Below, piece after piece: positions 3,883 through 34,011 of a DNA stretch of 35,314 nt. The notes under the pieces are model-generated. The model had not been told where the DNA came from, did not search any database, and saw only the letters and a list, made by a program, of their open reading frames with translations. The stretch's first letter is position 1. Each line of letters opens with the position of its first letter. The translations under genes and the position numbers were made by a program. Origin of the DNA: Candidatus Latescibacterota bacterium (GTDB taxonomy: Bacteria > Latescibacterota > 4484-107 > B68-G9); contig DTXA01000513.1 of assembly GCA_012962735.1 (NCBI GenBank), positions 1 to 35,314 on the forward strand, given 5' to 3'.

Positions 3883-5025
3883 TTATATCAGTCCGGCAGC
3901 TTCGTACATGGCCAGCACGTTCTCCACCGGGGTCTTAGGCAAAATCGTGTTGCTGGACCCCAATATCCACCTTCCCATAGGAAGGGCCTTCTCTATAAGC
4001 TCTCTTACGGCATCTTTCACCTGCTCAGGCCTTCCTCTCCTCAGAAGCCTGGAGCTTACGTTCCCCCAACAAGTGAGCTTCGGGAACCTCTCCTGCACCT
4101 CGGGTATCCTCATACCGGCGTCGTGGTCTATCTCCCCGTATCCATCCACCCCCGACTTCCCGAAGAGCTCCTCCGCTATGGACCAGAGGTCCCCATCGCT
4201 CCGGAAGACGTATTTCAACCCGAGCTTGTGCGCATATCCCACGATCCGCTTGAGCCTGGGCAGGACGATCTCCCTGAAGACCCTCTGCCCGTAAATCGGT
4301 CCACGGTTGTCGGCCAAGTCTCCCCCTCCCCAGACGATCCGTACGCCCAGCTCAGCTTGGGCCTCCAACTGCTGCCGTGCTCTTTCCACCTGCGCGTCCA
4401 AGTACTCCCCTACAAGGTCCGGAGCTAAGGCGCAGGCCGTGAGCCATTCCTCGTTGAGAGGGACCGAGAGCCCGGCCCCCCGTCCCAGTACTTCGAGCTC
4501 CTCCCCGACCAGCTCACGCCAGTGCAAGATGTGTCTTGTGAATTCTTCCCTTTCCTCCTCCGCCCACATCTCCGCCCCGCGCCAGGCCTCATCCACCCGG
4601 GCTTTGAGGGCTTCCCTCCCCCTCCATGCCGGCTTCCGGTTGTACTGAACCGGTCCATAGGTGCCGGAGTCCGGATCGTACCTGTACACCGCCCAATCCC
4701 CCTCTGGGTCCCCGTACAGGAATTCGTATTCCCCCACCTGTTTCGTGGGAGGCCCTATAGTCCACGGTCCCGCCACAGCCCCAAGTCTAAGAGCTCGAGC
4801 TAAGTCCACCACGTCCCGTTCCATCCTCTTCCTGAAATCCCTGTACGCCTCCGGCCCCTTTACTGCCGCGACCGCCTCCTGGTAGTGCAGCATAACCGAA
4901 CCCGTATGTGCCTCCCGCCCCAAGATTTCCGAGGCGACGTCCGAGGCGAAGGCCTGCTCGTAGGCCGGAGGCCGATCCGTGGCCTTCCCTTCAAAGGCCG
5001 CTAAGAACCTCTCCCTCTCCGTCAT
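3883..5025 (-). CDS. Uroporphyrinogen decarboxylase (URO-D) family protein, second paralogue
   Basis: The C-terminal half (GGGDLADNRGP...FRSDGDL...GSSNTILP) parallels the URO-D-like gene at 211-1287. Confidence 0.7.
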   Translation of the reverse strand: MTERERFLAAFEGKATDRPPAYEQAFASDVASEILGREAHTGSVMLHYQEAVAAVKGPEAYRDFRKRMERDVVDLARALRLGAVAGPWTIGPPTKQVGEYEFLYGDPEGDWAVYRYDPDSGTYGPVQYNRKPAWRGREALKARVDEAWRGAEMWAEEEREEFTRHILHWRELVGEELEVLGRGAGLSVPLNEEWLTACALAPDLVGEYLDAQVERARQQLEAQAELGVRIVWGGGDLADNRGPIYGQRVFREIVLPRLKRIVGYAHKLGLKYVFRSDGDLWSIAEELFGKSGVDGYGEIDHDAGMRIPEVQERFPKLTCWGNVSSRLLRRGRPEQVKDAVRELIEKALPMGRWILGSSNTILPKTPVENVLAMYEAAGLI

Positions 5026-5818: not shown

Positions 5819-7312
5819 TTACGTCGTCCCCAACAACGTTTCATATAGCCTCCTCTGGCGCTCCATGGCCCTTAGATAAACCTCGTGCCTTCCGGGGTCC
5901 GGCTCGTAGGCATCTCCCGTGAAGTCCGGAATCTCTGATATGTCCTGGAGCGCGCCGATGGACTCCAAGGCCAAAAGCGCCGTGCCCCTGGCGGTCGCCT
6001 CCGGTACGCCCGAAAGCACAACCGGCCTCCCCAACACATCCGCCAACATCTGAGCCCAGGTCGGAGATGCCATAAGAGCCCCCCCGCTTGCCACGATCTC
6101 CCCGGCCTTAGGCAGGGCTTTCCGGAGGAGCTCGTATATCAAGCCGAACCTGTAGGCGACCGCCTCCATACCGGCCCTTAGCACGTCCAAAGGCCCGTGG
6201 TGAAGGGAAAGTCCCTCTATCGCCATTTTAGCATCCCCCCTCCAGCCCGGGCTCCTCTCGCCGGAGATGAAGGGAAGCACAGTAAGTCCGTGCCCGTCCG
6301 GAGGCATCCGAGAGAGGGCCTCCTCGGGGTCCTCGGGCACCCTGAGCAGATCCCTGAGCCAGAGACACAGCCCCCCTCCCTCGGTCAAAGCCCCCCCCAG
6401 AAGCCCCCTCCTGCGGTCCACCCTGTAGTCCCAAAGCCCCCGGGGAAGCAAAACGTCCTCCGTGTGCACCGCCCGCAGGGCTCCAGTGGTGCCTAATGTC
6501 AGGGCGACCCTTTCGGGTTCCGTACACCCGCTGCCTATGTTAGCTGCCGCCCCATCTCCTATGGCCGGAAACCATGGCACCTCCCGCAGGGCCGGCCACC
6601 TTCGCGCCCACTCTCCCAAGAGGCCCAGGAAGGGAGTATCGACATCCACAAGCTCGGGCAGTTCCTCCCGCCCCACCGGAAGAGCCGAGAGCAGCTTTTC
6701 GTCCCATGAAAGGTCGTGCCTGTTCAGGAATCCTGCCCAGGAGGCGACCGAAAGGCTCTCCCCTGTCCTGCCGAACAGCCTCAGGAGCACGAAGGCCCCG
6801 AACGAAAGCCAGAGCTTCACCCTGCGAAATTCCCCCTCCAAGGCCCTTCTGGCCCACAGGAAGCGGGCGGGAAGGTAGCTGGTGTGGAAGGGCACGCCCG
6901 TGCGCTCGTAACATTCCCCCTCGTCCAAAAGCTCCCTCAGCTTCTCCACCTCCCTTTCGTTTCGGACGTCCGCATAGGTATATATAGGGGTTATGGGTCT
7001 GCCGTCCGGGTCCACGCCTAAGACGTTGGAGACCATAGTATCCATGCCCACGGCCCGGACCTTTCCGGATAACTCCCCAGCAGAGTCCAATACCTCGTCC
7101 AAGGCATCCGCTAAAAGCCCGAACAGCCCCTCGGGGTCCAAAACCGCCCCCCCGTCCGGCGTGGCCTCCAGCCTATACTCCCTGCGAGCCGATAGTCCCT
7201 TTATGCTCCGGCCCAGGGAATCGAAGAACACAGCCCTGAGGGAGGAGCTCCCTATGTCCAAGGCCAAAACGAACGGGGCCTCGGCTTCTCTCCTTTCCAC
7301 CTCAGGGCTCAT
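5819..7312 (-). CDS. FGGY-family carbohydrate kinase (gluconokinase-like)
   Basis: N-terminal LALDIGSSSLRAVFFD ATPase motif, a length of 497 aa, and a C-terminal GGALMASPTWAQMLADVLGRPV motif. The start overlaps the LarA-like stop by 4 nt. Confidence 0.8.
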   Translation of the reverse strand: MSPEVERREAEAPFVLALDIGSSSLRAVFFDSLGRSIKGLSARREYRLEATPDGGAVLDPEGLFGLLADALDEVLDSAGELSGKVRAVGMDTMVSNVLGVDPDGRPITPIYTYADVRNEREVEKLRELLDEGECYERTGVPFHTSYLPARFLWARRALEGEFRRVKLWLSFGAFVLLRLFGRTGESLSVASWAGFLNRHDLSWDEKLLSALPVGREELPELVDVDTPFLGLLGEWARRWPALREVPWFPAIGDGAAANIGSGCTEPERVALTLGTTGALRAVHTEDVLLPRGLWDYRVDRRRGLLGGALTEGGGLCLWLRDLLRVPEDPEEALSRMPPDGHGLTVLPFISGERSPGWRGDAKMAIEGLSLHHGPLDVLRAGMEAVAYRFGLIYELLRKALPKAGEIVASGGALMASPTWAQMLADVLGRPVVLSGVPEATARGTALLALESIGALQDISEIPDFTGDAYEPDPGRHEVYLRAMERQRRLYETLLGTT

Positions 7313-8571
7313 CCTCCCTCCTTCTTAAGCCGGTAGAGCACCTCTCCGGCCTTGGGAAGCACCAAGATCCCATCGTCCTCCCTGCCCATGTAGTCCTCCG
7401 GCCGGAACGAAGAAGGATCTATGTACTTCAGGTTCACCCTCTCGACGCGCTCCTTGGGTATCCCAGTGGCCAAATAGACCTCGACCCTAGGCTTTTCCAC
7501 GCCCGTGCGCTCGTCGTACCATCCGAAGCCCTTAAGGTGCGTCGAATGCGCCAGCACACCCCAGGGATAGTGTTTGAACTTATCCCACTGCTTGAGGAAG
7601 TAGTCCCGTACGTGATACCCTATCTCGTCCAACACATTGCCGTGTGTGTAGGAGATCTCCGTGATGTGCGGGGCATATATGATCACCTCACCGCCGTCCG
7701 CCACCGCCGGCTCCACCTTGTACATCCCCTTTGCGGCCGTCCATATGTCGTCGTACATCTCGGGCATCACCGATATCACCTTGCGGAATGGCCTTTCCAC
7801 CCATACCACGTGCACCTTTGCCGAAAGGTCCACGGCCAGCTCGTACGCCTCCTCGGGCGTTCCCGTATAAAGCCCCGCCAGACCCTCGTCCTTCACCACC
7901 ATCGCCAAACAGTACTTGGGCTTGTCCAAGAGGCCGGCGGCTCTGTCTATGACCCTCCTTACTGGGGTATGTTTGACGCCTATTATCTTGAGTATGGTGA
8001 TGACCGCGCCAAGCCAGTGGGAGAAGTTTATGACCTCCCAACCCCCTATGCCCGGGAAGAAGTACTTGTTCCCCCCAGAAAACCCCACGACCTCGTGCGG
8101 GAACACCGGGCCGCATATGACGATGCTGTCGTAATCCAAGACCATCTGGTTCAGCCTGACCTCGACCGGCATCTCTATGAGCCCCTCGGTGATCTCCGCT
8201 ATCTCCGAGGCCGGTATAGTCCCTAAGGAGGCGAAGATATCCGGAAGGTCCCAGCGGTGGTTGAAGACCCTCACATCCCTGTACCTTCCTTCCCAATCCT
8301 CGGGTGAGACGCCGGCCAGTCTGTTTATGGCCTCCTGCGACATGGGAGGATGGGTGCCTAAGGCTATGAGGTAGTCCAAAGCCCTCACCTTCCCCGAAAG
8401 CAGCTCGTGGAAAAGTCGGAACATCATAGGGATAGGTGCCGTGCGTGTCCCGTCGGGAACGATGAAGAGCACCCTTTTGCCTTCTAAGTCCCACTTAGAG
8501 AAGGCATCCTCAACTATGGAACGCACCTCGCCTTCTCCAAGGAGCCGGTCTACGTACCCCTTTCCAGTCAT
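7309..8571 (-). CDS. LarA-like nickel-pincer-dependent 2-hydroxyacid racemase/epimerase family protein (DUF2088)
   Basis: FIVPDGTRTAP (the DxTR motif) and PHEVVGFSGGNKYFFPG (the PH...SGG.K segment that holds the catalytic His and the cofactor-binding Lys in LarA), followed by a downstream His (INFSHW). Length 420 aa. RBS GGAGGGAG. Confidence 0.75.
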   Translation of the reverse strand: MTGKGYVDRLLGEGEVRSIVEDAFSKWDLEGKRVLFIVPDGTRTAPIPMMFRLFHELLSGKVRALDYLIALGTHPPMSQEAINRLAGVSPEDWEGRYRDVRVFNHRWDLPDIFASLGTIPASEIAEITEGLIEMPVEVRLNQMVLDYDSIVICGPVFPHEVVGFSGGNKYFFPGIGGWEVINFSHWLGAVITILKIIGVKHTPVRRVIDRAAGLLDKPKYCLAMVVKDEGLAGLYTGTPEEAYELAVDLSAKVHVVWVERPFRKVISVMPEMYDDIWTAAKGMYKVEPAVADGGEVIIYAPHITEISYTHGNVLDEIGYHVRDYFLKQWDKFKHYPWGVLAHSTHLKGFGWYDERTGVEKPRVEVYLATGIPKERVERVNLKYIDPSSFRPEDYMGREDDGILVLPKAGEVLYRLKKEGG

Positions 8572-8580
8572 ACTCCCTCC

Positions 8581-9405
8581 TCACACCCCGCTGAAGGCCG
8601 AGAACCCCCCGTCTATGGGCACGACGATCCCGGTGACGAAGGAAGCCGAAGGGGAAAGAAGCCAAGCCACGACACCTATGAGGTCCTCCGGGTCCCCGAA
8701 CCTCCCCTGGGGCGTGTGGTCTATTATGGTCCTACCCCGCGGGGTCAGGTCCCCCTTATCGTCCAAAAGGAGGTATCTGTTCTGCTCGGTCAAGAAGAAC
8801 CCCGGCGCTATGGCCACTACGCGGATGTTAGGGGAGTATTCCTGGGCCATATGCACCGCCAACCACTGCGTGAAGTTGCTCACAGCTGCCTTGGCCGCCG
8901 AATACGCTGGTATGCGGGTCAGCGGCCTGAAGGCGTTCATGGAGGAGATGTTGAGTATGACACCTTCGCCCCGTTCGGCCATATGCTCCCCGAAGACCTG
9001 GCTTGCTAAGAAAGTTCCCGTGAAGTTCAGCCCAAAGACCCACTGGAGGGCATCCTCCGGGAGATCGAAGAAGGGAAGCTCCGGAGAGGTGGTCGCCTGA
9101 GGTCTGTTACCACCTGCGCCGTTTATCAGGAAGTCCACCCCCTCGAACCTTTCCAACACCCTGTCCCTGGCGGCCTTCAAACTGTCCTTATCCATAACAT
9201 CGCACTGTACCGCCAATGCCTCCCCGCCCCCGGAGTTCACTTCGTCCACCACCTTCCCGGCCGCCTCCTCCGATATGTCCAAGACCGCCACTCTCACCCC
9301 GAGCTTCCCCAACGCCCGTGACATCGTCCCGCAGAGCACTCCACCTCCACCGGTTACGGCCGCGACCTTTCCTTCTAACTCGAAAAGCTTCTCCAAGTAT
9401 CCCAT
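8581..9405 (-). CDS. SDR-family oxidoreductase (UxuB / D-mannonate oxidoreductase-like subgroup possible)
   Basis: TGGGGVLCG dinucleotide motif and YSAAK catalytic motif, plus an insertion GGNRPQATTS...FFDLPEDALQWVFGLNFTG. Start moved to ATG 9405 (MGYLEK), preceded by GGGAGGAAGGA. This removes the overlap with the upstream gene. Confidence 0.8.
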   Translation of the reverse strand: MGYLEKLFELEGKVAAVTGGGGVLCGTMSRALGKLGVRVAVLDISEEAAGKVVDEVNSGGGEALAVQCDVMDKDSLKAARDRVLERFEGVDFLINGAGGNRPQATTSPELPFFDLPEDALQWVFGLNFTGTFLASQVFGEHMAERGEGVILNISSMNAFRPLTRIPAYSAAKAAVSNFTQWLAVHMAQEYSPNIRVVAIAPGFFLTEQNRYLLLDDKGDLTPRGRTIIDHTPQGRFGDPEDLIGVVAWLLSPSASFVTGIVVPIDGGFSAFSGV

Positions 9406-9418
9406 TCCTTCCTCCCGG

Positions 9419-10573
9419 CTATCGCACGATATGCCCACCCTGGACCACGTGCACCACCCAGCCCAGGGCAGCGATATCCTCCAAGGGGTTCCCCTCTACC
9501 GCTACGAGGTCCGCATACTTGCCCGGCTCCACCGTGCCCAGCTTCCCCTCAAGCCCGAGCAGCTCGGCCGCTGTGCGAGTGACAGCCGCCAGTGCTTCCT
9601 CCTCGGTGAACCCTCCGAGCCTCACGGCCACCACGAGGGTCTTGTACAGCTCGTCGATGGGGGTATTCGGTATCCCAGCGTCCGAGCCCAGGGCCACCTT
9701 GACGCCCGAGCGCAGCGCCCGAAGCTGGAAGCAGAGGGGAGGACCCGGGTTCCCCGATGCCTCCCTCTTGCCGGCTATAGTGTGGCAGATGAAGGTCCCC
9801 CCTCCCCGGATGTGCTCCAAAAGCTCCTCATCGAAGGCGAAGCCCTCCCCCTCGGCCATCCAAGAGCAGTGTTCCAAGCTGTCCACTCCGGCCAGAACTG
9901 CGTTTCGGATACCCTCGGTGCCGTGGACGTGGGCTGAGACCCTGCGCCCCATCCGATGCACGTCCCGGACCAGCACCGACAGCTCCTCCGCGCTGTACCG
10001 GGCCATCCGCACGTTGGAACCCGGGGTGAGCCCCCCTCCGGTGACGCAGACCTTCACCCAGTCCACGCCCCTCCGCACCAGCTCCCGTGCGGCCCTTATA
10101 AGCTCCGGACCGCTGTCCGCAGAGATTCCCATAAACCACAGGTGCCCTCCGGTCGTGGTCAGGGGAGGGCCGGAGACGAAGAGCCTAGGGCTGGACACCA
10201 GCCCCTGTACCGCCGCCTTTTTGAGGGAAAGTGTCACCCCTCCACGATCCCCGCAGTCCCGGAATGCCGTTATCCCGGCTTTGAGGGCCCTTTCGGCGTT
10301 GTGTACGGCCCTGAGGAGCAGGTCCCAGTCGTCCTCCCGCTGCAGGACTTCCACAGCATCAGGCTCCCCAGAGAACACCAGGTGCCCGTGGGATTCTATC
10401 AGGCCGGGGACCAAGGTCAGACCGCCGAAGTCCACCCGCTCGGCTTTGGCCGGAAGCCCGTCCCTGGTGCGGATCTCCCTTATCCTCCCGTCCCGCACTA
10501 TCACGGCGGGCTTGGGAAGAGGGTCCCTTCCGGTCCCGTCCACCAATAGCTCACCTAAGAAGATCTTCTCCAT
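9419..10573 (-). CDS. Metal-dependent amidohydrolase family protein (COG1228-like)
   Basis: VPGLIESHGHLV (the HxH motif), SAHVHG, LEHCSW and ALGSDAG are the metal-ligand motifs of the amidohydrolase superfamily. Confidence 0.8.
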   Translation of the reverse strand: MEKIFLGELLVDGTGRDPLPKPAVIVRDGRIREIRTRDGLPAKAERVDFGGLTLVPGLIESHGHLVFSGEPDAVEVLQREDDWDLLLRAVHNAERALKAGITAFRDCGDRGGVTLSLKKAAVQGLVSSPRLFVSGPPLTTTGGHLWFMGISADSGPELIRAARELVRRGVDWVKVCVTGGGLTPGSNVRMARYSAEELSVLVRDVHRMGRRVSAHVHGTEGIRNAVLAGVDSLEHCSWMAEGEGFAFDEELLEHIRGGGTFICHTIAGKREASGNPGPPLCFQLRALRSGVKVALGSDAGIPNTPIDELYKTLVVAVRLGGFTEEEALAAVTRTAAELLGLEGKLGTVEPGKYADLVAVEGNPLEDIAALGWVVHVVQGGHIVR

Positions 10574-27571: not shown

Positions 27572-28465
27572 TCATAATAGCTCCTCCCACACCCGCCCCC
27601 ATGCCTCTGAGAGCATCCGCTTGGCCCCGGCCAACACCAGGTCTGGGTCCTCGCCAGGCAGGGGCCGCACCTCGAGGCTCACGATCGGCGGGTCCTCCGG
27701 GTCCAGGAACCCCGCCTCCCCCAGGGCCCAGAGGAACTCGGTCACCTCCTCTACCCCGTTAGCCCCTCCCTCCAACCCGAGGCGGGGGTGCTTGTCACCG
27801 TAAGCCGGGTGGGATGGGTCGAGGACGCAGTTGCCCACGTGGACCTGAAGGAGGTATTCCCCAGCGGACTCCATCGCATCCCAGGGGTCCTCCCCCAGCA
27901 AAGGCAGGTGAGATAGGTCCACCAAAAGCCCCAAATTGGCCCGGTTGGTCCGCTCCACGACCTCCACGGCCTCCTCGGTGGGGCCTATCAGGGCCCTCTT
28001 TTCCACATCCCGGTCGAAGGTCTCCAGAGCCACCTCTATGCCATATCCCCAAGCGTAGTCGCACACCTCCCGGAGGGAGCAGACCAGCTGTTCTCGAGCC
28101 CGTTCCCGCTCCCCTTCCCCTGGGTCCGGTCCGGACATCACAGCCATCCGTCCAACCCCCAGCCTCCGGGCCCGGTCTACGTGCCCCTTGAGGAGGTCCA
28201 CCGCCCGCCTGCGCTCGGAGTTCTCTAAGGCGTTGGGGTTGACACCCTCGACCAGCACTGCCGGCTGGGCGCAGTACACCAAGGTCAACCCCGAGGTCTC
28301 GGCTATCTCCATCACCTGTCCCTCCTCTTCAGGCAGGGGGGGGACCTCCGCAACCGAGAAGAAGGGGTCCGCCGCTATTTTCCTAAGGGCCTCTGGAAAG
28401 GGAAGGTCGGGATAGACCATATTCACGACGACTCCCAAACGCATATACGTCGAAAGCGGCTCCAT
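27572..28465 (-). CDS. Sugar phosphate isomerase/epimerase (xylose isomerase-like TIM barrel) family protein
   Basis: The pattern of conserved E/D/H residues (ALETF, LLVDLSHL, HVGNC, SLEVRP) and the 297-aa length fit the AP_endonuc_2 / IolI-IolE-like fold. Confidence 0.65.
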   Translation of the reverse strand: MEPLSTYMRLGVVVNMVYPDLPFPEALRKIAADPFFSVAEVPPLPEEEGQVMEIAETSGLTLVYCAQPAVLVEGVNPNALENSERRRAVDLLKGHVDRARRLGVGRMAVMSGPDPGEGERERAREQLVCSLREVCDYAWGYGIEVALETFDRDVEKRALIGPTEEAVEVVERTNRANLGLLVDLSHLPLLGEDPWDAMESAGEYLLQVHVGNCVLDPSHPAYGDKHPRLGLEGGANGVEEVTEFLWALGEAGFLDPEDPPIVSLEVRPLPGEDPDLVLAGAKRMLSEAWGRVWEELL

Positions 28466-28476
28466 GTTCTCCTCCT

Positions 28477-29319
28477 TTAACGCCCGATACTCTTCTGGTA
28501 TTGCAGCCCCGCCTCCTCAACTATAGGCTCGACGTCCTTCAACCACCGGTGGGCCGGGTCGTCGTAGGGCAGGAGAATACGTTCCCTCCCGGCCAAGACC
28601 CAAAGGTAGCACAGTCGGTAGCCCGGCCCGGCGACAACTGGATGGTATCCCCTTGGAATCACGACGGTGTCCCCGTCCTCCACAACGTAGACCTCGTCCA
28701 CATCCCGGTCCTCCGTGTAGATGCGCTGGATCCCGAAGCCCTGGCGAGGCTTAACCTTGAAGAAGTAAACCTCCTCCATATCCGCCTCCTCCGGGGGGCG
28801 GTCGAAGTCGTGGCGGTGGGGGGGCGAGCTGGACCAGTTCCCAGGGGGGTTCACGGTCTCCCCTACAAGCAGGTGCTGCGCAGACACCTGCGGGCCCACG
28901 ATCTCCTTGACCTCCCTCCTCCAGTTCAACTTCCCCACCGAGCGGACCCGCACCTCCCCGGGGAAGATCAGCCTGGGAGGCCCCTCCCGGTCGGAGGGCG
29001 CCTTGCACACGGCCACCTCCACATCGCCCAGACCTACCACCCGCACCCGATGCCCCGGAGGTACGAAGACCGCATGGGCCTCCCCGGAGAACACGTCCTG
29101 CCTTTCCCCTATGCCCTCGTACGCCTCCACCCCTGCATAGACCGTGCACCTTCCCCCTAACACCACCAAGGCCGCCTCCTTACCCTCCGGACCCCACCGG
29201 TACTCCTCCCCATCCCTCAGCCTCAGCAGTCCGAACTCGATGAAATCGGTCCTGGGGTCCCCCTCGGGTACGACGGGCAGGAACCCGTATTCCTCCCTCC
29301 CCTTGATATGCCAGTCCAT
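28477..29319 (-). CDS. iolB: 5-deoxy-glucuronate isomerase (KduI/IolB family cupin)
   Basis: GNWSSSPPHRHD...PEEADMEEVYFFK..PRQGFGIQRIYT.DR.VDE...V.DGDTVVIPRGYHPVVAGPGY...YLWVLAG...DDPAHRWL closely follows the Bacillus subtilis IolB signature as I recall it. Confidence 0.85.
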   Translation of the reverse strand: MDWHIKGREEYGFLPVVPEGDPRTDFIEFGLLRLRDGEEYRWGPEGKEAALVVLGGRCTVYAGVEAYEGIGERQDVFSGEAHAVFVPPGHRVRVVGLGDVEVAVCKAPSDREGPPRLIFPGEVRVRSVGKLNWRREVKEIVGPQVSAQHLLVGETVNPPGNWSSSPPHRHDFDRPPEEADMEEVYFFKVKPRQGFGIQRIYTEDRDVDEVYVVEDGDTVVIPRGYHPVVAGPGYRLCYLWVLAGRERILLPYDDPAHRWLKDVEPIVEEAGLQYQKSIGR

Positions 29320-29337: not shown

Positions 29338-30666
29338 CTATGCATTGCGGCCAGCCATAGCCCGGCGCACCCCCTTAAGCTTCTCCTGACATATACGGTA
29401 CACCAGCTCCGGCGGGTACCCATCGCCGAACCTACCTAAGTCCCTGGGCCTGTGCTCCTCGAATTCCCTCAACGCCATCTCGTACTCCCTGGCAGCCGGG
29501 CCAAGGAGACCTCCCTCCCGGTAGATGTCCCCTAAATACATCCTGGCCAGCACGTCCGGCCGCAGGAGGAGCACCCTCCGGAACTCCTCGGAAGCCCGGC
29601 CCGTCTCGCCCATCGCCTTGTAGATCAACCCCTTGAGGAAGTGGGCGTCCGCATATGTTGGGTCCTTCTTCAGGGCCTCCTCGCAGAGCCTGAGGGCCTC
29701 TCCGTGCCTCCCAGCATCTGCATGTCCCTCCGCCAGGCAGATGAGTTCGTCCGGGCTCTCCCCCGCATCCTGGAGCGGAGGCTTCGGCTTGGGCCTCTCG
29801 GCCATCCTCGGCTCTACAACCTCCCGCTTCCGGTAGGCCCAGGCGTCCCCGAGCCAAACCGGGCGGAATTTGTCGGTCAGAAACCTCAGGTTCTCGGAAT
29901 ATCCAACGAACAGATACCCCAGGTCATCCAGGCTCAGGTAGAAGTTGTGGATCACCCGCTTGGTCGACCTCAGCTTGAAGTAGATCGTCACGTTCCGGCA
30001 GAATATGATGTCCCACCCTTTCATCTTGGAGAGGGGATAGGGTTCGAAGATTAGGTTAAAGTACTCAAACCGCACCATTCCTTTGATCTCTTCCGAGACG
30101 TGGAACAGCCCTCCCCGTTCCTCGAAGTACCGTCTTCTGTACCTCTCCTCCAGCTCCTTAAGGGAGCGAGGCCTGTAGACTCCTCTCCTGGCGTCCCGCA
30201 GCGCCCTCTCGCTCACATCGGTCCCCAGTATCTCCACCTTCCACCGTCCAAGGTCGGGCAGTACGTCCCTCACCACCATGGCTATGGAATAGGGCTCCTC
30301 CCCAGTGGAACAACCGGCGCTCCATATGCGTATCGTGCGGGTGTCCCTCTTGTGCCTTGCGATCTCAGGAAGAACATGCGACCTAAGGGCTTCGAACTGG
30401 GCTCTGTCCCGGAAGAACCACGTCTCGTTCACCGTGAGGATGTCCAGAAGCCTGCGGAATTCCGCCTCACGGTCGGGCCCCCAGGTGAGTCGTTCGTAAT
30501 ACTCCCTGTATTCGGTCAACTCCAGCGCACTCATCCGGGACACGAGGGCGATGCGCAGCGCATCCCTCCTCTCCTCCCCGAAGTGAAGCCCACTGTTGCG
30601 CTCTATGAAGTCTCCGAACAGAGCGAACTCCTCATCGCTCAGGTCCGGCCTGATCTTCGGATACAT
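29338..30666 (-). CDS. cheR: Chemotaxis protein methyltransferase CheR with a C-terminal TPR extension
   Basis: VNETWFFRD and IWSAGCSTGEEPYSIAM SAM-binding motifs. The C-terminal roughly 130 aa are TPR-like (ALRLCEEALKKDPTYADAHFLKGLIYKAMGE...). Confidence 0.85.
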   Translation of the reverse strand: MYPKIRPDLSDEEFALFGDFIERNSGLHFGEERRDALRIALVSRMSALELTEYREYYERLTWGPDREAEFRRLLDILTVNETWFFRDRAQFEALRSHVLPEIARHKRDTRTIRIWSAGCSTGEEPYSIAMVVRDVLPDLGRWKVEILGTDVSERALRDARRGVYRPRSLKELEERYRRRYFEERGGLFHVSEEIKGMVRFEYFNLIFEPYPLSKMKGWDIIFCRNVTIYFKLRSTKRVIHNFYLSLDDLGYLFVGYSENLRFLTDKFRPVWLGDAWAYRKREVVEPRMAERPKPKPPLQDAGESPDELICLAEGHADAGRHGEALRLCEEALKKDPTYADAHFLKGLIYKAMGETGRASEEFRRVLLLRPDVLARMYLGDIYREGGLLGPAAREYEMALREFEEHRPRDLGRFGDGYPPELVYRICQEKLKGVRRAMAGRNA

Positions 30667-31684
30667 CGGAAACCTCTCGCACGGTTCGGACGAGCTCCTC
30701 TGCGATGCGCTCCAGGGGTATCACTTCATCCACTGCATCTAAGGCTATAGCAGCCTGAGGCATAGATGCGACCACGCAGGTGGAGGCCTCCTGGGCTATG
30801 GTCCTTCCGCCCCTGTCCCGTATCGCCTTGATCCCCCTGGCCCCGTCGTCCAGCATACCCGTCAGGATCACCCCCACCGCCCGAGGTCCTCGGGCCTCGG
30901 CCACAGAGGACAGCAGTATATCCGCTGAAGGACGGAACGCCCGCAGGGGGGGGCCATCCCTAAGGCGCACCCTCGCCCTCCCATCCACGGCCATATGGAC
31001 TCCGTCAGGGGCGAAAAGCACCACCCCAGGCGCCACCTCGTCTCCTTCCTCCCCCACCCTGACCTCCAGCGGACACCTCTCGTCTATGGAGGCCGCCAGC
31101 CCCTCTATGAACCCCTTGGCCATATGCTGCACCACCACAACCCCGGCCGGGAAGTCGGGAGGGAGCTCGGACAGGATATACGACAGGGCTGACGGCCCCC
31201 CAGTGGAGGACGCCACAGCCACTATGGGGCTCCCGGATGCGGGGGAGCGTCGAGGGGGTTTGACCCGCCTGCGGCGTGGGGTGGGTCTGACCCTACAGAG
31301 CACCTTCACCTGGCGGGCGAAACACAGTGCAGCCTCGGGGTGCCGCCTGGAGAGGAGGAGGGGGGGTTTGGGCAGGACGTCCAGGGCCCCGGCCTCTAAG
31401 GACCGCTTCAGCAACATCTCCTCGTCGTCGTATGAGGCGGTCACCATAACGATGGGGACGGAATGCTCCTGCAGGACCCTGCGGGCAGCTTCGAACCCGT
31501 CCATACCCCCCGGAAGCCGAATGTCCATAAGCACCACATCAGGTCGGAGCTTCATGACCTCGGCGACCGCCTCCTCCCCCCGTACGGCGAACCCCACCAC
31601 CCGGAACTCCGGGTCCACCTCGAGCGCCTCCTGTATCGCTCTCTGAGCCGTGCGAAGGTCGTCCACAACGAGGGCACGGATCAC
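30632..31684 (-). CDS. cheB: Protein-glutamate methylesterase CheB (REC plus methylesterase)
   Basis: REC domain with DVVLMDIRLPGGMDG. Esterase triad context: ASSTGGPSAL, VVVQHM, LTGMLDDGARG. It overlaps cheR by 35 nt. Confidence 0.9.
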   Translation of the reverse strand: MIRALVVDDLRTAQRAIQEALEVDPEFRVVGFAVRGEEAVAEVMKLRPDVVLMDIRLPGGMDGFEAARRVLQEHSVPIVMVTASYDDEEMLLKRSLEAGALDVLPKPPLLLSRRHPEAALCFARQVKVLCRVRPTPRRRRVKPPRRSPASGSPIVAVASSTGGPSALSYILSELPPDFPAGVVVVQHMAKGFIEGLAASIDERCPLEVRVGEEGDEVAPGVVLFAPDGVHMAVDGRARVRLRDGPPLRAFRPSADILLSSVAEARGPRAVGVILTGMLDDGARGIKAIRDRGGRTIAQEASTCVVASMPQAAIALDAVDEVIPLERIAEELVRTVREVSDVSEDQAGPER

Positions 31685-34011
31685 CTCCGCCTCCTGCCGA
31701 TCAAGAGACGCACTGTGTCTATCAAGTTCTCCCCCCGAAACCCGCTTTTCAGGATATACGCATCCGCTCCCGCCTCCAATCCTCTCCTCCTGTCCTCCTC
31801 CCTCACCATCGAGGTCACTATTACCACGGGAACGTCCATGTACCTCTCGTCCCCGCGGATGCGCTGGATCAGGGTGAACCCATCCATACGGGGCATTTGG
31901 ATGTCCGTAACCACCAGGTCGAAGGGCTTTTCGGCCAGTTTCCCGAGCGCCTCTTCGCCGTCGCTGGCCACCTCCACCTCAAATCCCGCACCCTCGAGCA
32001 GGCTCTTCTCCACCTGCTGGGTTACCAGTTGGTCCTCCACCAGGAGCACCCTCGGCCTGCGATGTCCGGGCTCAGGCTCCCCCTGGGCCCCTCTCCTGCC
32101 GGCCAGCCGCACCAGGGCCGACGGCTCTAAGATGGGGACCACTTCCCCGCTCCCTAAGACCGTGACTCCCGAGAGGAACGGGGTCCTGCGCAACAGGAAG
32201 GACCCGGGGGACTTCACCACCACCTCCTGCTCCCCCAAAACCTCCTCCACCCCGAGTGCCACCCAGCGTCCTTCCGTCCGGACCACAAGCGCCTGGGTGG
32301 GGTCATCACCTCCATTCCACCCCAAGGCCTCCATCAGGGAGATCAAGGGGATCAGATGGCCGCCTATGTAGATCGTCCTCCCACCGTCCTGGCGGTAGGC
32401 ATCGTCCTTCCGCAGTCGCACCGCCTGCTCCACCGCGTCCGCCGGCAGGGCCAAGGTCCTACCCCCAGTCTTCAACAGGAAGGCCGGGGCGGTGATCAAA
32501 GTGAGGGGGAAGTCCAGGACAAATTTGGTCCCCCTCCCCTTCCTCGTGGAAACCGAAACTCTTCCCTTGAGCCGCTCTACGTTTGTGCGCACGACGTCCA
32601 GCCCGATTCCTCTCCCGGAGACGTCGGTGACCGAGGTGCTCGTGCTGAACCCGGGCAGGAATATCAGCTCGCACGCTTCCTCAGAGGAAAGGGCATCTGC
32701 CTCCCGGTGGGAGAGCAGGCCTCGACGCACGGCCGTATCCTTCAGCTCTTCCGGATCCATCCCCCGGCCGTCGTCCTCCACCTCTATCAACACCCGTCCC
32801 TCCTGCTGACGGGCCGTGACCCGGACCGTGCCGGCTTCGGGCTTGCCGGACTTCCTCCGCTCTTCTTTGGGCTCTATCCCGTGGTCCAGAGCGTTGCGGA
32901 TGAGGTGGATAAGAGGGTCCCAGATTTGCTCTAAGATGCTCTTGTCCACCTCCACCTCTCCTCCCTCCTGCACAAGCTTCGCCTCCTTGCCGAACTGCTT
33001 AGCCAGGTCCCGGACGGCCCTGGGAAGCATGTGGAATACAGTTGAGACCGGCAACATTCTGGCACGCATTATGGTGTCCCGCAACTCGGAGAGGAGGAGG
33101 TGGACCCCCTCCAATCGGTCCCCGAATTGCCTGCAGAAGTCGTCCATACGAGCTGCGAGTTGGGGGGCTTCCGTCCTGAGGTCCGCCAGCGTCTCCTCTG
33201 CGTCCGCCTGGAGCTCGGAGAGGCCAAGGTGGTGCGTGAACAGCTCCTCTAAGAGGTTCAAGAGGGCGTCTAAAAGTTCGGTGCGCACCCGGACGGTCTC
33301 CCCCAGGGCCTCTTGGGGGACGGAGGGAGGCCTCGGGGGCGCCTCCTTCCGCCTCCCCCAGGAAAGGGCATCCAAGCTCCGGTTGATGGCGTCTAAGGCC
33401 TCTAAGACCCCATCTAACACTTCCTCCGAGAGTTCCCCTCGTCCCTCGCTGAGGTCCCGGAAGACCTCCTCGATCCCGTGCGCCAGAGAGCTTATTTCGG
33501 TAAGTCCCATAGTCATAGCAGAGCCCTTGAGGCTGTGAGCTCTGCGGAACACTTCTTGGAGGGCTTCCTCGTTCCCCGGCTCTTCCCTCAACCGCCCCAG
33601 CCCCGTGTTGATCCCCCCCAAATGTTCCCTCGCGGACTCCAAGAAGTCGGGGAGGAACTGGGCCAGCTCCCCAAGGTCCTCTTCGGTAGGGGGGAGCTTC
33701 TGGCCGGCGGCGGCCTTCAGGAGGGAGCCCACCACGTCCAGGTCCCGCAGGAAGGCCTCTAAGTGGCCGGAGTCCATGGCACCGCCCCGCTCCCATATGC
33801 CCTTCAATCTTCCCTCCATCTCGTGCACCAGGTTCACTGCTCGTCCGACCCCTAACATCCTTCCCAGCGCCTTCAAGTTGTGGAAACCCTGGGAGACCGA
33901 GCGCCGGAGCTCCTCGTCCTGAGGATCGAGAGAGAGGGCCAGAAGGTCCTCGTTGAGACGCTGTACCTGTTCCGATATGTCCTCCCGCACGAACTCATGG
34001 GACATCGGCAT
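31681..34011 (-). CDS. cheA: Hybrid chemotaxis histidine kinase CheA (two HPt, dimerisation/HATPase, CheW-like, and C-terminal REC domains)
   Basis: HPt-1 is FHNLKALGRMLG and HPt-2 is AHSLKGSAMTMG. N-box HLIRNALDHGIE, G1 DDGRGMD, G2 GRGIGLDVV, a CheW-like P5 domain, and REC DLVVTDIQMPRMDG. Confidence 0.9.
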   Translation of the reverse strand: MPMSHEFVREDISEQVQRLNEDLLALSLDPQDEELRRSVSQGFHNLKALGRMLGVGRAVNLVHEMEGRLKGIWERGGAMDSGHLEAFLRDLDVVGSLLKAAAGQKLPPTEEDLGELAQFLPDFLESAREHLGGINTGLGRLREEPGNEEALQEVFRRAHSLKGSAMTMGLTEISSLAHGIEEVFRDLSEGRGELSEEVLDGVLEALDAINRSLDALSWGRRKEAPPRPPSVPQEALGETVRVRTELLDALLNLLEELFTHHLGLSELQADAEETLADLRTEAPQLAARMDDFCRQFGDRLEGVHLLLSELRDTIMRARMLPVSTVFHMLPRAVRDLAKQFGKEAKLVQEGGEVEVDKSILEQIWDPLIHLIRNALDHGIEPKEERRKSGKPEAGTVRVTARQQEGRVLIEVEDDGRGMDPEELKDTAVRRGLLSHREADALSSEEACELIFLPGFSTSTSVTDVSGRGIGLDVVRTNVERLKGRVSVSTRKGRGTKFVLDFPLTLITAPAFLLKTGGRTLALPADAVEQAVRLRKDDAYRQDGGRTIYIGGHLIPLISLMEALGWNGGDDPTQALVVRTEGRWVALGVEEVLGEQEVVVKSPGSFLLRRTPFLSGVTVLGSGEVVPILEPSALVRLAGRRGAQGEPEPGHRRPRVLLVEDQLVTQQVEKSLLEGAGFEVEVASDGEEALGKLAEKPFDLVVTDIQMPRMDGFTLIQRIRGDERYMDVPVVIVTSMVREEDRRRGLEAGADAYILKSGFRGENLIDTVRLLIGRRRR

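Follow-up and report, generated by a model that had tools for sequence, protein, structure and literature searches.

A route from hexuronates to 6-phosphogluconate by way of mannonate and gluconate was proposed for Thermotoga maritima by Rodionova et al. in 2012. As that work is cited in PMC6978723 and PMC7583248, fructuronate is converted to mannonate, mannonate to gluconate by GntE, and gluconate to 6-phosphogluconate by GntK, with Gnd acting next; the basis of the proposal was the position of gntE between the genes for fructuronate reductase and gluconate kinase. Desguin et al. showed the epimerase step in 2020 (PMC7583248). GntE2 of T. maritima, a LarA-family enzyme with demonstrated D-gluconate 2-epimerase activity, converts D-mannonate to D-gluconate with a Km of 17 mM and a kcat of 197 per second, and GntE1 of C. 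glutamicum performs the same reaction with a Km of 120 mM and a kcat of 59 per second. GntE2 falls in group 20 of the LarA homologues, a group linked to a short-chain dehydrogenase/reductase (SDR) in 100% of cases and to a COG1070 kinase in 86% (PMC7583248 Table S1). Here we describe a three-gene locus encoding an SDR, a LarA homologue and an FGGY-family kinase in contig DTXA01000513.1 of a Candidatus Latescibacterota bacterium; "the window" below means the whole analysed stretch of 35,314 nucleotides. We consider it probable that the trio forms a module of the known GntE type that leads hexuronates into the pentose phosphate pathway, running from fructuronate through mannonate and gluconate to 6-phosphogluconate. 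The preliminary description of the locus had offered the same series of steps as a hypothesis, which our analysis supports in substance but which is not new, having been put forward for Thermotoga in 2012.

The three genes are co-directional on the minus strand, as seen from the open reading frame listing and the junction sequences. First comes the SDR (8581..9405, 274 aa), a predicted D-fructuronate reductase/D-mannonate oxidoreductase that is UxuB-like and of the PRK08277 type. It is followed by the LarA homologue (7309..8571, 420 aa), a predicted D-mannonate/D-gluconate 2-epimerase dependent on the nickel-pincer nucleotide (NPN), and then by the FGGY-family sugar-acid kinase (5819..7312, 497 aa), a predicted gluconokinase. 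The linkage reported earlier, a 9-nt gap and a 4-nt overlap, is borne out at both junctions. The 9 nt that separate the SDR stop from the epimerase ATG (8572..8580, minus strand) lie within the Shine-Dalgarno sequence GGAGGGAG, and the stop of the LarA homologue overlaps the kinase start in the ATGA at 7309-7312, preceded by GGAGGGAGG. A strong Shine-Dalgarno site stands upstream of all three genes, and translation of the kinase gene is coupled to that of the epimerase gene. The SDR start is most likely the ATG at 9405, which is preceded by GGGAGGAAGGA; an in-frame GTG further upstream, at 9438, was judged an unlikely start.

The gene order is that of TM0441-TM0442-TM0443 (UxaD-GntE2-GntK) in T. 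maritima, and the route proposed there is the same as the one proposed here. The proteins themselves differ. GntE2 and the window epimerase align over their full length at 234 bits but share only 36% identity, and the T. maritima SDR matches the window SDR only at a low score, as described below. What is new here is not the mechanism, which was predicted for Thermotoga in 2012 and whose epimerase step was shown in 2020, the window being a further example of it, but a group-19 epimerase set in a Thermotoga-like gene order.

The LarA homologue carries Lar_N (PF09861; 62.8 bits, cut-off 23.3). Its best solved relative is PDB 4NAR, which is GntE2 of T. maritima (PMC7583248), with 234 bits and an E value of 1.9e-68 over residues 31-419 of 420, while lactate racemase structures reach at most 34 bits. 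The translation contains PDGTRT (D40, R43) and PHEVVGFSGGNK (H159...K169), so the two motifs named in the preliminary description, DxTR and PHEVVGFSGGNK, are both in place. To set residue equivalences, the protein was aligned by MAFFT with LarA, GntE1 and GntE2 and indexed on L. plantarum LarA. D72, R75, H108, H174, K184, H200 and K298 of that enzyme correspond to D40, R43, H74, H159, K169, H185 and K281 here, and every catalytic and cofactor-binding residue of LarA is, by this alignment, retained. L. plantarum LarA (PDB 5HUQ) would thus share with the window protein its fold family, its NPN chemistry and these seven catalytic or cofactor residues at 22% identity. The two differ in that F175/F176 of LarA are replaced by E/V and Y294/Q295/V297 by W/T/A, as in hexonate epimerases.

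We then compared the protein with the sequences and signature residues that Dataset S2 of PMC7583248 gives for 25 LarA homologue groups. The window signature reads D40 R43 H74 H159 E160 V161 K169 H185 V204 W277 T278 A280 K281, and all 13 alignable positions match group 19 (D R H H E V K H V W T A K), whose signature sites lie in the substrate loop, alpha-11 and alpha-14 (E V ... V W T A K; G-L-A-S-T-H). The motif WGVLAHSTHL is the same as in Rcas_3031. The group 20 signature differs from the window protein by S, A and G in place of V161, V204 and A280, and the group 18 signature differs as well (V/L, N). The BLASTP identities are 62% to Nostoc punctiforme Npun_F5335, 60% to Roseiflexus Rcas_3031 and RoseRS_2056, 53% to the Planctomyces member, 46-51% to actinobacterial members and 44% to the characterised C. 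glutamicum GntE1, all of group 19, then 36% to T. maritima GntE2 (group 20), 26% to group-18 members and 22-24% to LarA (group 1). A maximum-likelihood tree places the window protein far from LarA, inside a poorly resolved group-19 radiation; it does not resolve how groups 18-20 branch at depth, and T. maritima sits on a long branch in it. Signature, identity (60-62% to its closest references) and tree together indicate that the LarA homologue belongs to group 19 of Desguin et al. ('G2E2', D-gluconate 2-epimerases) and not to the lactate or malate racemases.

Two neighbouring assignments were tried and rejected. NF052594, the model for the group 18 putative hexonate epimerase, is the best-scoring LarA model of NCBIfam, but at 196 bits against a cut-off of 500, and together with the 26% identity this argues against membership of group 18; the malate and lactate racemase models score at most 83 bits. 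Orthology with T. maritima GntE2 in group 20 was set aside in favour of group 19 on the strength of 36% against 60-62% identity and the three signature mismatches. With GntE1 (LarAH19) itself the window protein has in common the superfamily, the 13 signature residues and the WGVLAHSTHL motif. It sits in the non-actinobacterial part of the group and is flanked by an SDR and an FGGY kinase; the contexts published for group 19 instead feature larB/larE/larC, LacI, UxaC and COG0246, with SDR also among the partners of Table S1 (PMC7583248).

The SDR belongs, as had been suggested, with the mannonate/fructuronate oxidoreductases. It matches NF006132 (PRK08277 'D-mannonate oxidoreductase') at 381 bits, above the cut-off of 281, over profile positions 2-280 of 280, and adh_short of Pfam at 150 bits. 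Its best PDB match is 4WUV (253 bits), which we take to be the UxuB-type enzyme of H. influenzae; the T. maritima SDR structure 1VL8, presumably TM0441, reaches only 105 bits. HiUxuB reduces D-fructuronate to D-mannonate (PMC5788505).

For the kinase, Pfam finds FGGY_N (98.7 bits) and FGGY_C (86.1 bits). The best NCBIfam match is the gluconokinase family TIGR01314 (gntK_FGGY) at 183 bits, ahead of XylB at 158 and GlpK at 134, and the best PDB match is the gluconate kinase 3GBT at 173 bits, the best glycerol kinase scoring 119. By score it is closer to the gluconokinases than to the xylulose or glycerol type. The earlier label of gluconokinase-like holds for the best family and best structure, but not at the level of an equivalog, since the protein falls below all equivalog cut-offs among the FGGY families scored. 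A specificity for gluconate is what the best-hit family and the gene context would predict.

The remainder of the genome was searched for cofactor and pathway genes; the assembly comprises 2.49 Mb in 574 contigs, with an estimated completeness of 99.3%. None of larB, larC and larE lies within the window, as had been noted. All three are present elsewhere, on the separate contigs C247, C420 and C548, and all score above their cut-offs: larB with 295 bits (NF033503, cut-off 175), larE with 347 bits (TIGR00268, cut-off 150) and larC with 480 bits (PF01969). The genome also holds a second LarA-family gene, lactate-racemase-like and 34-44% identical to lactate racemases, which is split over two contig ends (C489:2490-2846 and C233:7779-8801) that share the peptide PNEGEELVELLG. 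There are therefore at least two NPN-dependent enzymes in this genome, and larB, larC and larE could also serve the second paralogue. The idea that the route bypasses the classical UxuA dehydratase agrees with the absence of PF03786 UxuA from the genome, in a search that did not extend to the enolase-superfamily mannonate dehydratases.

In the route that we propose, fructuronate would be supplied either from glucuronate via the UxaC-like isomerase or from galacturonate/tagaturonate via UxaE, both of which are encoded elsewhere in the genome. The SDR would reduce D-fructuronate with NAD(P)H to D-mannonate. Loaded with the NPN made by LarB, LarE and LarC, the LarA homologue would then epimerise D-mannonate at C2, passing a hydride transiently to the cofactor, and release D-gluconate; in this step H74 and H159 would form the acid/base pair, K169 would tether the cofactor and H185 would bind the nickel. 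Gluconate would next be phosphorylated to 6-phosphogluconate by the FGGY kinase, and Gnd would oxidise and decarboxylate this product to ribulose 5-phosphate, so that no mannonate dehydratase would be needed. Genes for UxaE (contig C351, 523 bits), the SDR, the GntE-like epimerase, the FGGY kinase and Gnd (contig C18, 713 bits) are all present, and UxaC is present as a divergent homologue only. From the observed family membership, residue conservation and genomic co-occurrence, and from a genome that has the cofactor genes and lacks uxuA, we infer the substrates, the order of the steps and the co-transcription of the trio. If correct, this is one more case, in a poorly studied lineage, of an NPN-dependent shortcut from plant-derived hexuronates to the pentose phosphate pathway.

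The family of the epimerase is very large, with more than 8000 database proteins matching it at E <=1e-10. We quantified its gene context in 80 loci taken from a scan of species-representative genomes, with epimerases 55-67% identical to ours, from Acidobacteriota, Chloroflexota, Nostoc, Planctomycetota, Verrucomicrobiota, Spirochaetota and Betaproteobacteria. Genes up to 6 kb from the epimerase were counted as neighbours when tblastn matched them at 40% identity or above over no less than 60% of the query, and were assigned to families with Pfam and NCBIfam. A PRK08277-type SDR occurred in 58 of the 80 loci, mostly directly upstream of the epimerase. Next in frequency were 6-phosphogluconate dehydrogenase (Gnd; 28 loci), UxaE (24), a LacI regulator (21), UxaC (18), a HAD-like protein (16), a GFO/IDH/MocA oxidoreductase (13) and a PfkB kinase (12), followed by a GntK/IdnK-type gluconokinase and a PFK-family protein (9 each) and an FGGY orthologue (5). 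UxaE or UxaC was near the epimerase in 37 loci, and at least one of SDR, UxaE, UxaC and Gnd in 71. Typical gene orders were LacI-UxaE-SDR-epimerase-Gnd-PfkB and GntK-LacI-UxaC-SDR-epimerase. These orders and counts make the SDR and the epimerase the conserved core, with fructuronate-forming enzymes upstream of it and 6-phosphogluconate-consuming enzymes downstream. Kinases that are not orthologous to one another (FGGY, GntK/IdnK-type, PfkB, PFK) occupy the kinase position. In nine Nostocaceae loci (8 Nostoc, 1 Mojavia) it is held by a gluconokinase that scores 154 bits with TIGR01313, above the cut-off of 114. Orthologues of the window kinase stand directly 3' of the epimerase in the five FGGY loci and in both other genomes of the same genus, where the LarA homologue-FGGY pair is thus retained. 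The pattern of neighbours likely fixes mannonate as substrate and gluconate as product, and argues for mannonate as the substrate in the clade of the window protein. It offers comparative support for a mannonate/gluconate role of non-actinobacterial group 19, which the original authors had left open.

Several further observations came from the same survey. In 16 of the 80 loci (for example L025:5047-5985) and in loci L106-L111 of the same phylum, the position directly upstream of the epimerase is taken by a protein of some 300-340 aa, which sometimes separates the epimerase from the SDR. It carries the HAD-type motifs DSDGCAFDT and GDALGD, has no Pfam match at 1e-5 and no PDB sequence match, and is an uncharacterised partner of the GntE cluster. 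In nine loci without a recognisable gluconokinase, among them L025, L027, L032, L036, L041, L054 and L060, Gnd or the epimerase is followed by a PFK-family protein (PF00365) some 435 aa long, which may be an alternative hexonate kinase. One of the two same-genus genomes retains HAD-PGM-OYE-amidohydrolase-SDR-epimerase-FGGY; in the other (L123, G001:C36) epimerase and FGGY kinase are kept, and an AT-rich non-coding stretch replaces the SDR and the upstream array. The window epimerase is 65-69% identical to Chloroflexota/Acidobacteriota proteins and only 46-50% identical to those of same-phylum genomes outside the genus. This closer resemblance to other phyla than to its own suggests, at the level of the protein sequence, that the module was acquired horizontally.

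A number of observations weigh against the route from fructuronate to 6-phosphogluconate by way of mannonate and gluconate. The sole UxaC of the genome (contig C535) is divergent, scoring 47.7 bits in Pfam and, in NCBIfam, 93 bits where the cut-off is 387. The genome also encodes a KDPG aldolase, a KDG-kinase-like PfkB and a GD_AH-family dehydratase, and because of these a dehydratase route for some sugar acids may operate alongside. The 183 bits of the kinase fall far below the gluconokinase equivalog cut-off of 648 (TIGR01314), and its margin over XylB is only 25 bits. Among six inspected neighbourhoods of kinase orthologues with 50-57% identity, the majority had unrelated neighbours, one showing the arrangement MFS-FGGY-6-phosphogluconate dehydrogenase. 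The authors who characterised GntE1 themselves doubted that mannonate is its native substrate, given the Km of 120 mM (PMC7583248). Finally, the spacing of the trio alone says little, because the whole array of about eleven functionally unrelated genes in which it lies is tightly packed, and scans for promoters and terminators gave matches at chance level and so were uninformative.

The alternative that survives best, though we think it unlikely, keeps the same enzymes and reverses two of the steps. Extracts of L. suebicus phosphorylate mannonate first and then epimerise 6-phosphomannonate, by genes that were not assigned (PMC6978723). Like the route proposed here, that one leads from the hexuronate isomerase pathway to 6-phosphogluconate via one kinase and one C2 epimerisation, but with the kinase before the epimerase. 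Applied to the window, this would make the FGGY protein a mannonate kinase, while the LarA homologue, a group-19 'GntE', would convert 6-phosphomannonate to 6-phosphogluconate. This order would account for the very high Km of GntE1 (120 mM) and GntE2 (17 mM) for free D-mannonate; it also fits the sub-threshold score of the kinase as a gluconokinase and the translational coupling of epimerase and kinase, the very pair that is retained within the genus. If it were true, the LarA homologue-FGGY pair would represent the so far unassigned genes for reactions of the L. suebicus type; a text search of the literature found no later paper assigning genes to them. On the other hand, both GntE1 and GntE2 turn over unphosphorylated mannonate with substantial kcat values (59 and 197 per second), the nine Nostocaceae loci pair the epimerase with a gluconokinase of the GntK/IdnK type that exceeds its cut-off, and GntK of E. 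coli (EC 2.7.1.12) does not use mannonate (PMC6978723). The gene order of reductase, epimerase and kinase fits epimerisation first as well, although this is weak evidence. The order of kinase and epimerase is a modest biochemical question.

Somewhat less probable still is that the group-19 epimerase acts on another sugar acid, whether a hexonate, a uronate or an aldarate such as glucarate/mannarate, and that the kinase takes its product. Desguin et al. speculated on another substrate for GntE1, citing the 120 mM Km and the uronate-linked context (PMC7583248). The contexts of actinobacterial group-19 members do differ, with COG0246 dehydrogenases and beta-glucuronidase, and the GFO/IDH/MocA oxidoreductase recurs in 13 of the 80 loci. 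What speaks for mannonate in the clade of the window protein is that its conserved partners are a mannonate-forming SDR upstream and Gnd and gluconokinases downstream. It strikes us as very improbable that the three genes serve unrelated processes and stand together only through the packing of a streamlined genome. In favour of this reading, the trio does lie in a run of some eleven closely spaced, co-directional genes of mixed function, none of the array's other genes accompanies the epimerase in other phyla, and the promoter and terminator scans stayed at chance level. Against it, the SDR again adjoins the epimerase in 58 of the 80 loci, which span several phyla, and the pairing of epimerase and FGGY kinase recurs independently in Caldilineales and Chloroflexia loci as well as within the genus.

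The co-directional, tightly packed array that holds the trio further comprises PGM/GlmM, an OYE-type flavoenzyme, an amidohydrolase, a secreted CarboxypepD_reg protein and a URO-D-like protein. We considered the upstream amidohydrolase, OYE-type flavoenzyme and PGM as parts of the module and rejected them: none of the 80 loci from other phyla has them within 6 kb of the epimerase, and they are retained beside it only within the genus. URO-D/MtaA-like proteins recur beside sugar-acid kinase genes in this genome, once downstream of the trio (window 3883-5025) and once adjoining the KDG-kinase-like PfkB (contig C372:2398-3486).

Elsewhere in the window, the KduI/IolB gene at 28477-29319 was considered as a uronate gene and rejected, being IolB at 254 bits against a cut-off of 205. 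This 5-deoxy-glucuronate isomerase adjoins a xylose-isomerase-like TIM-barrel protein (27572-29319 for the pair), which hints at inositol catabolism. Immediately beyond it, at 29338-34011 on the minus strand, runs a set of chemotaxis genes encoding a CheA-like hybrid kinase (776 aa), a CheB methylesterase and a CheR with TPR repeats.

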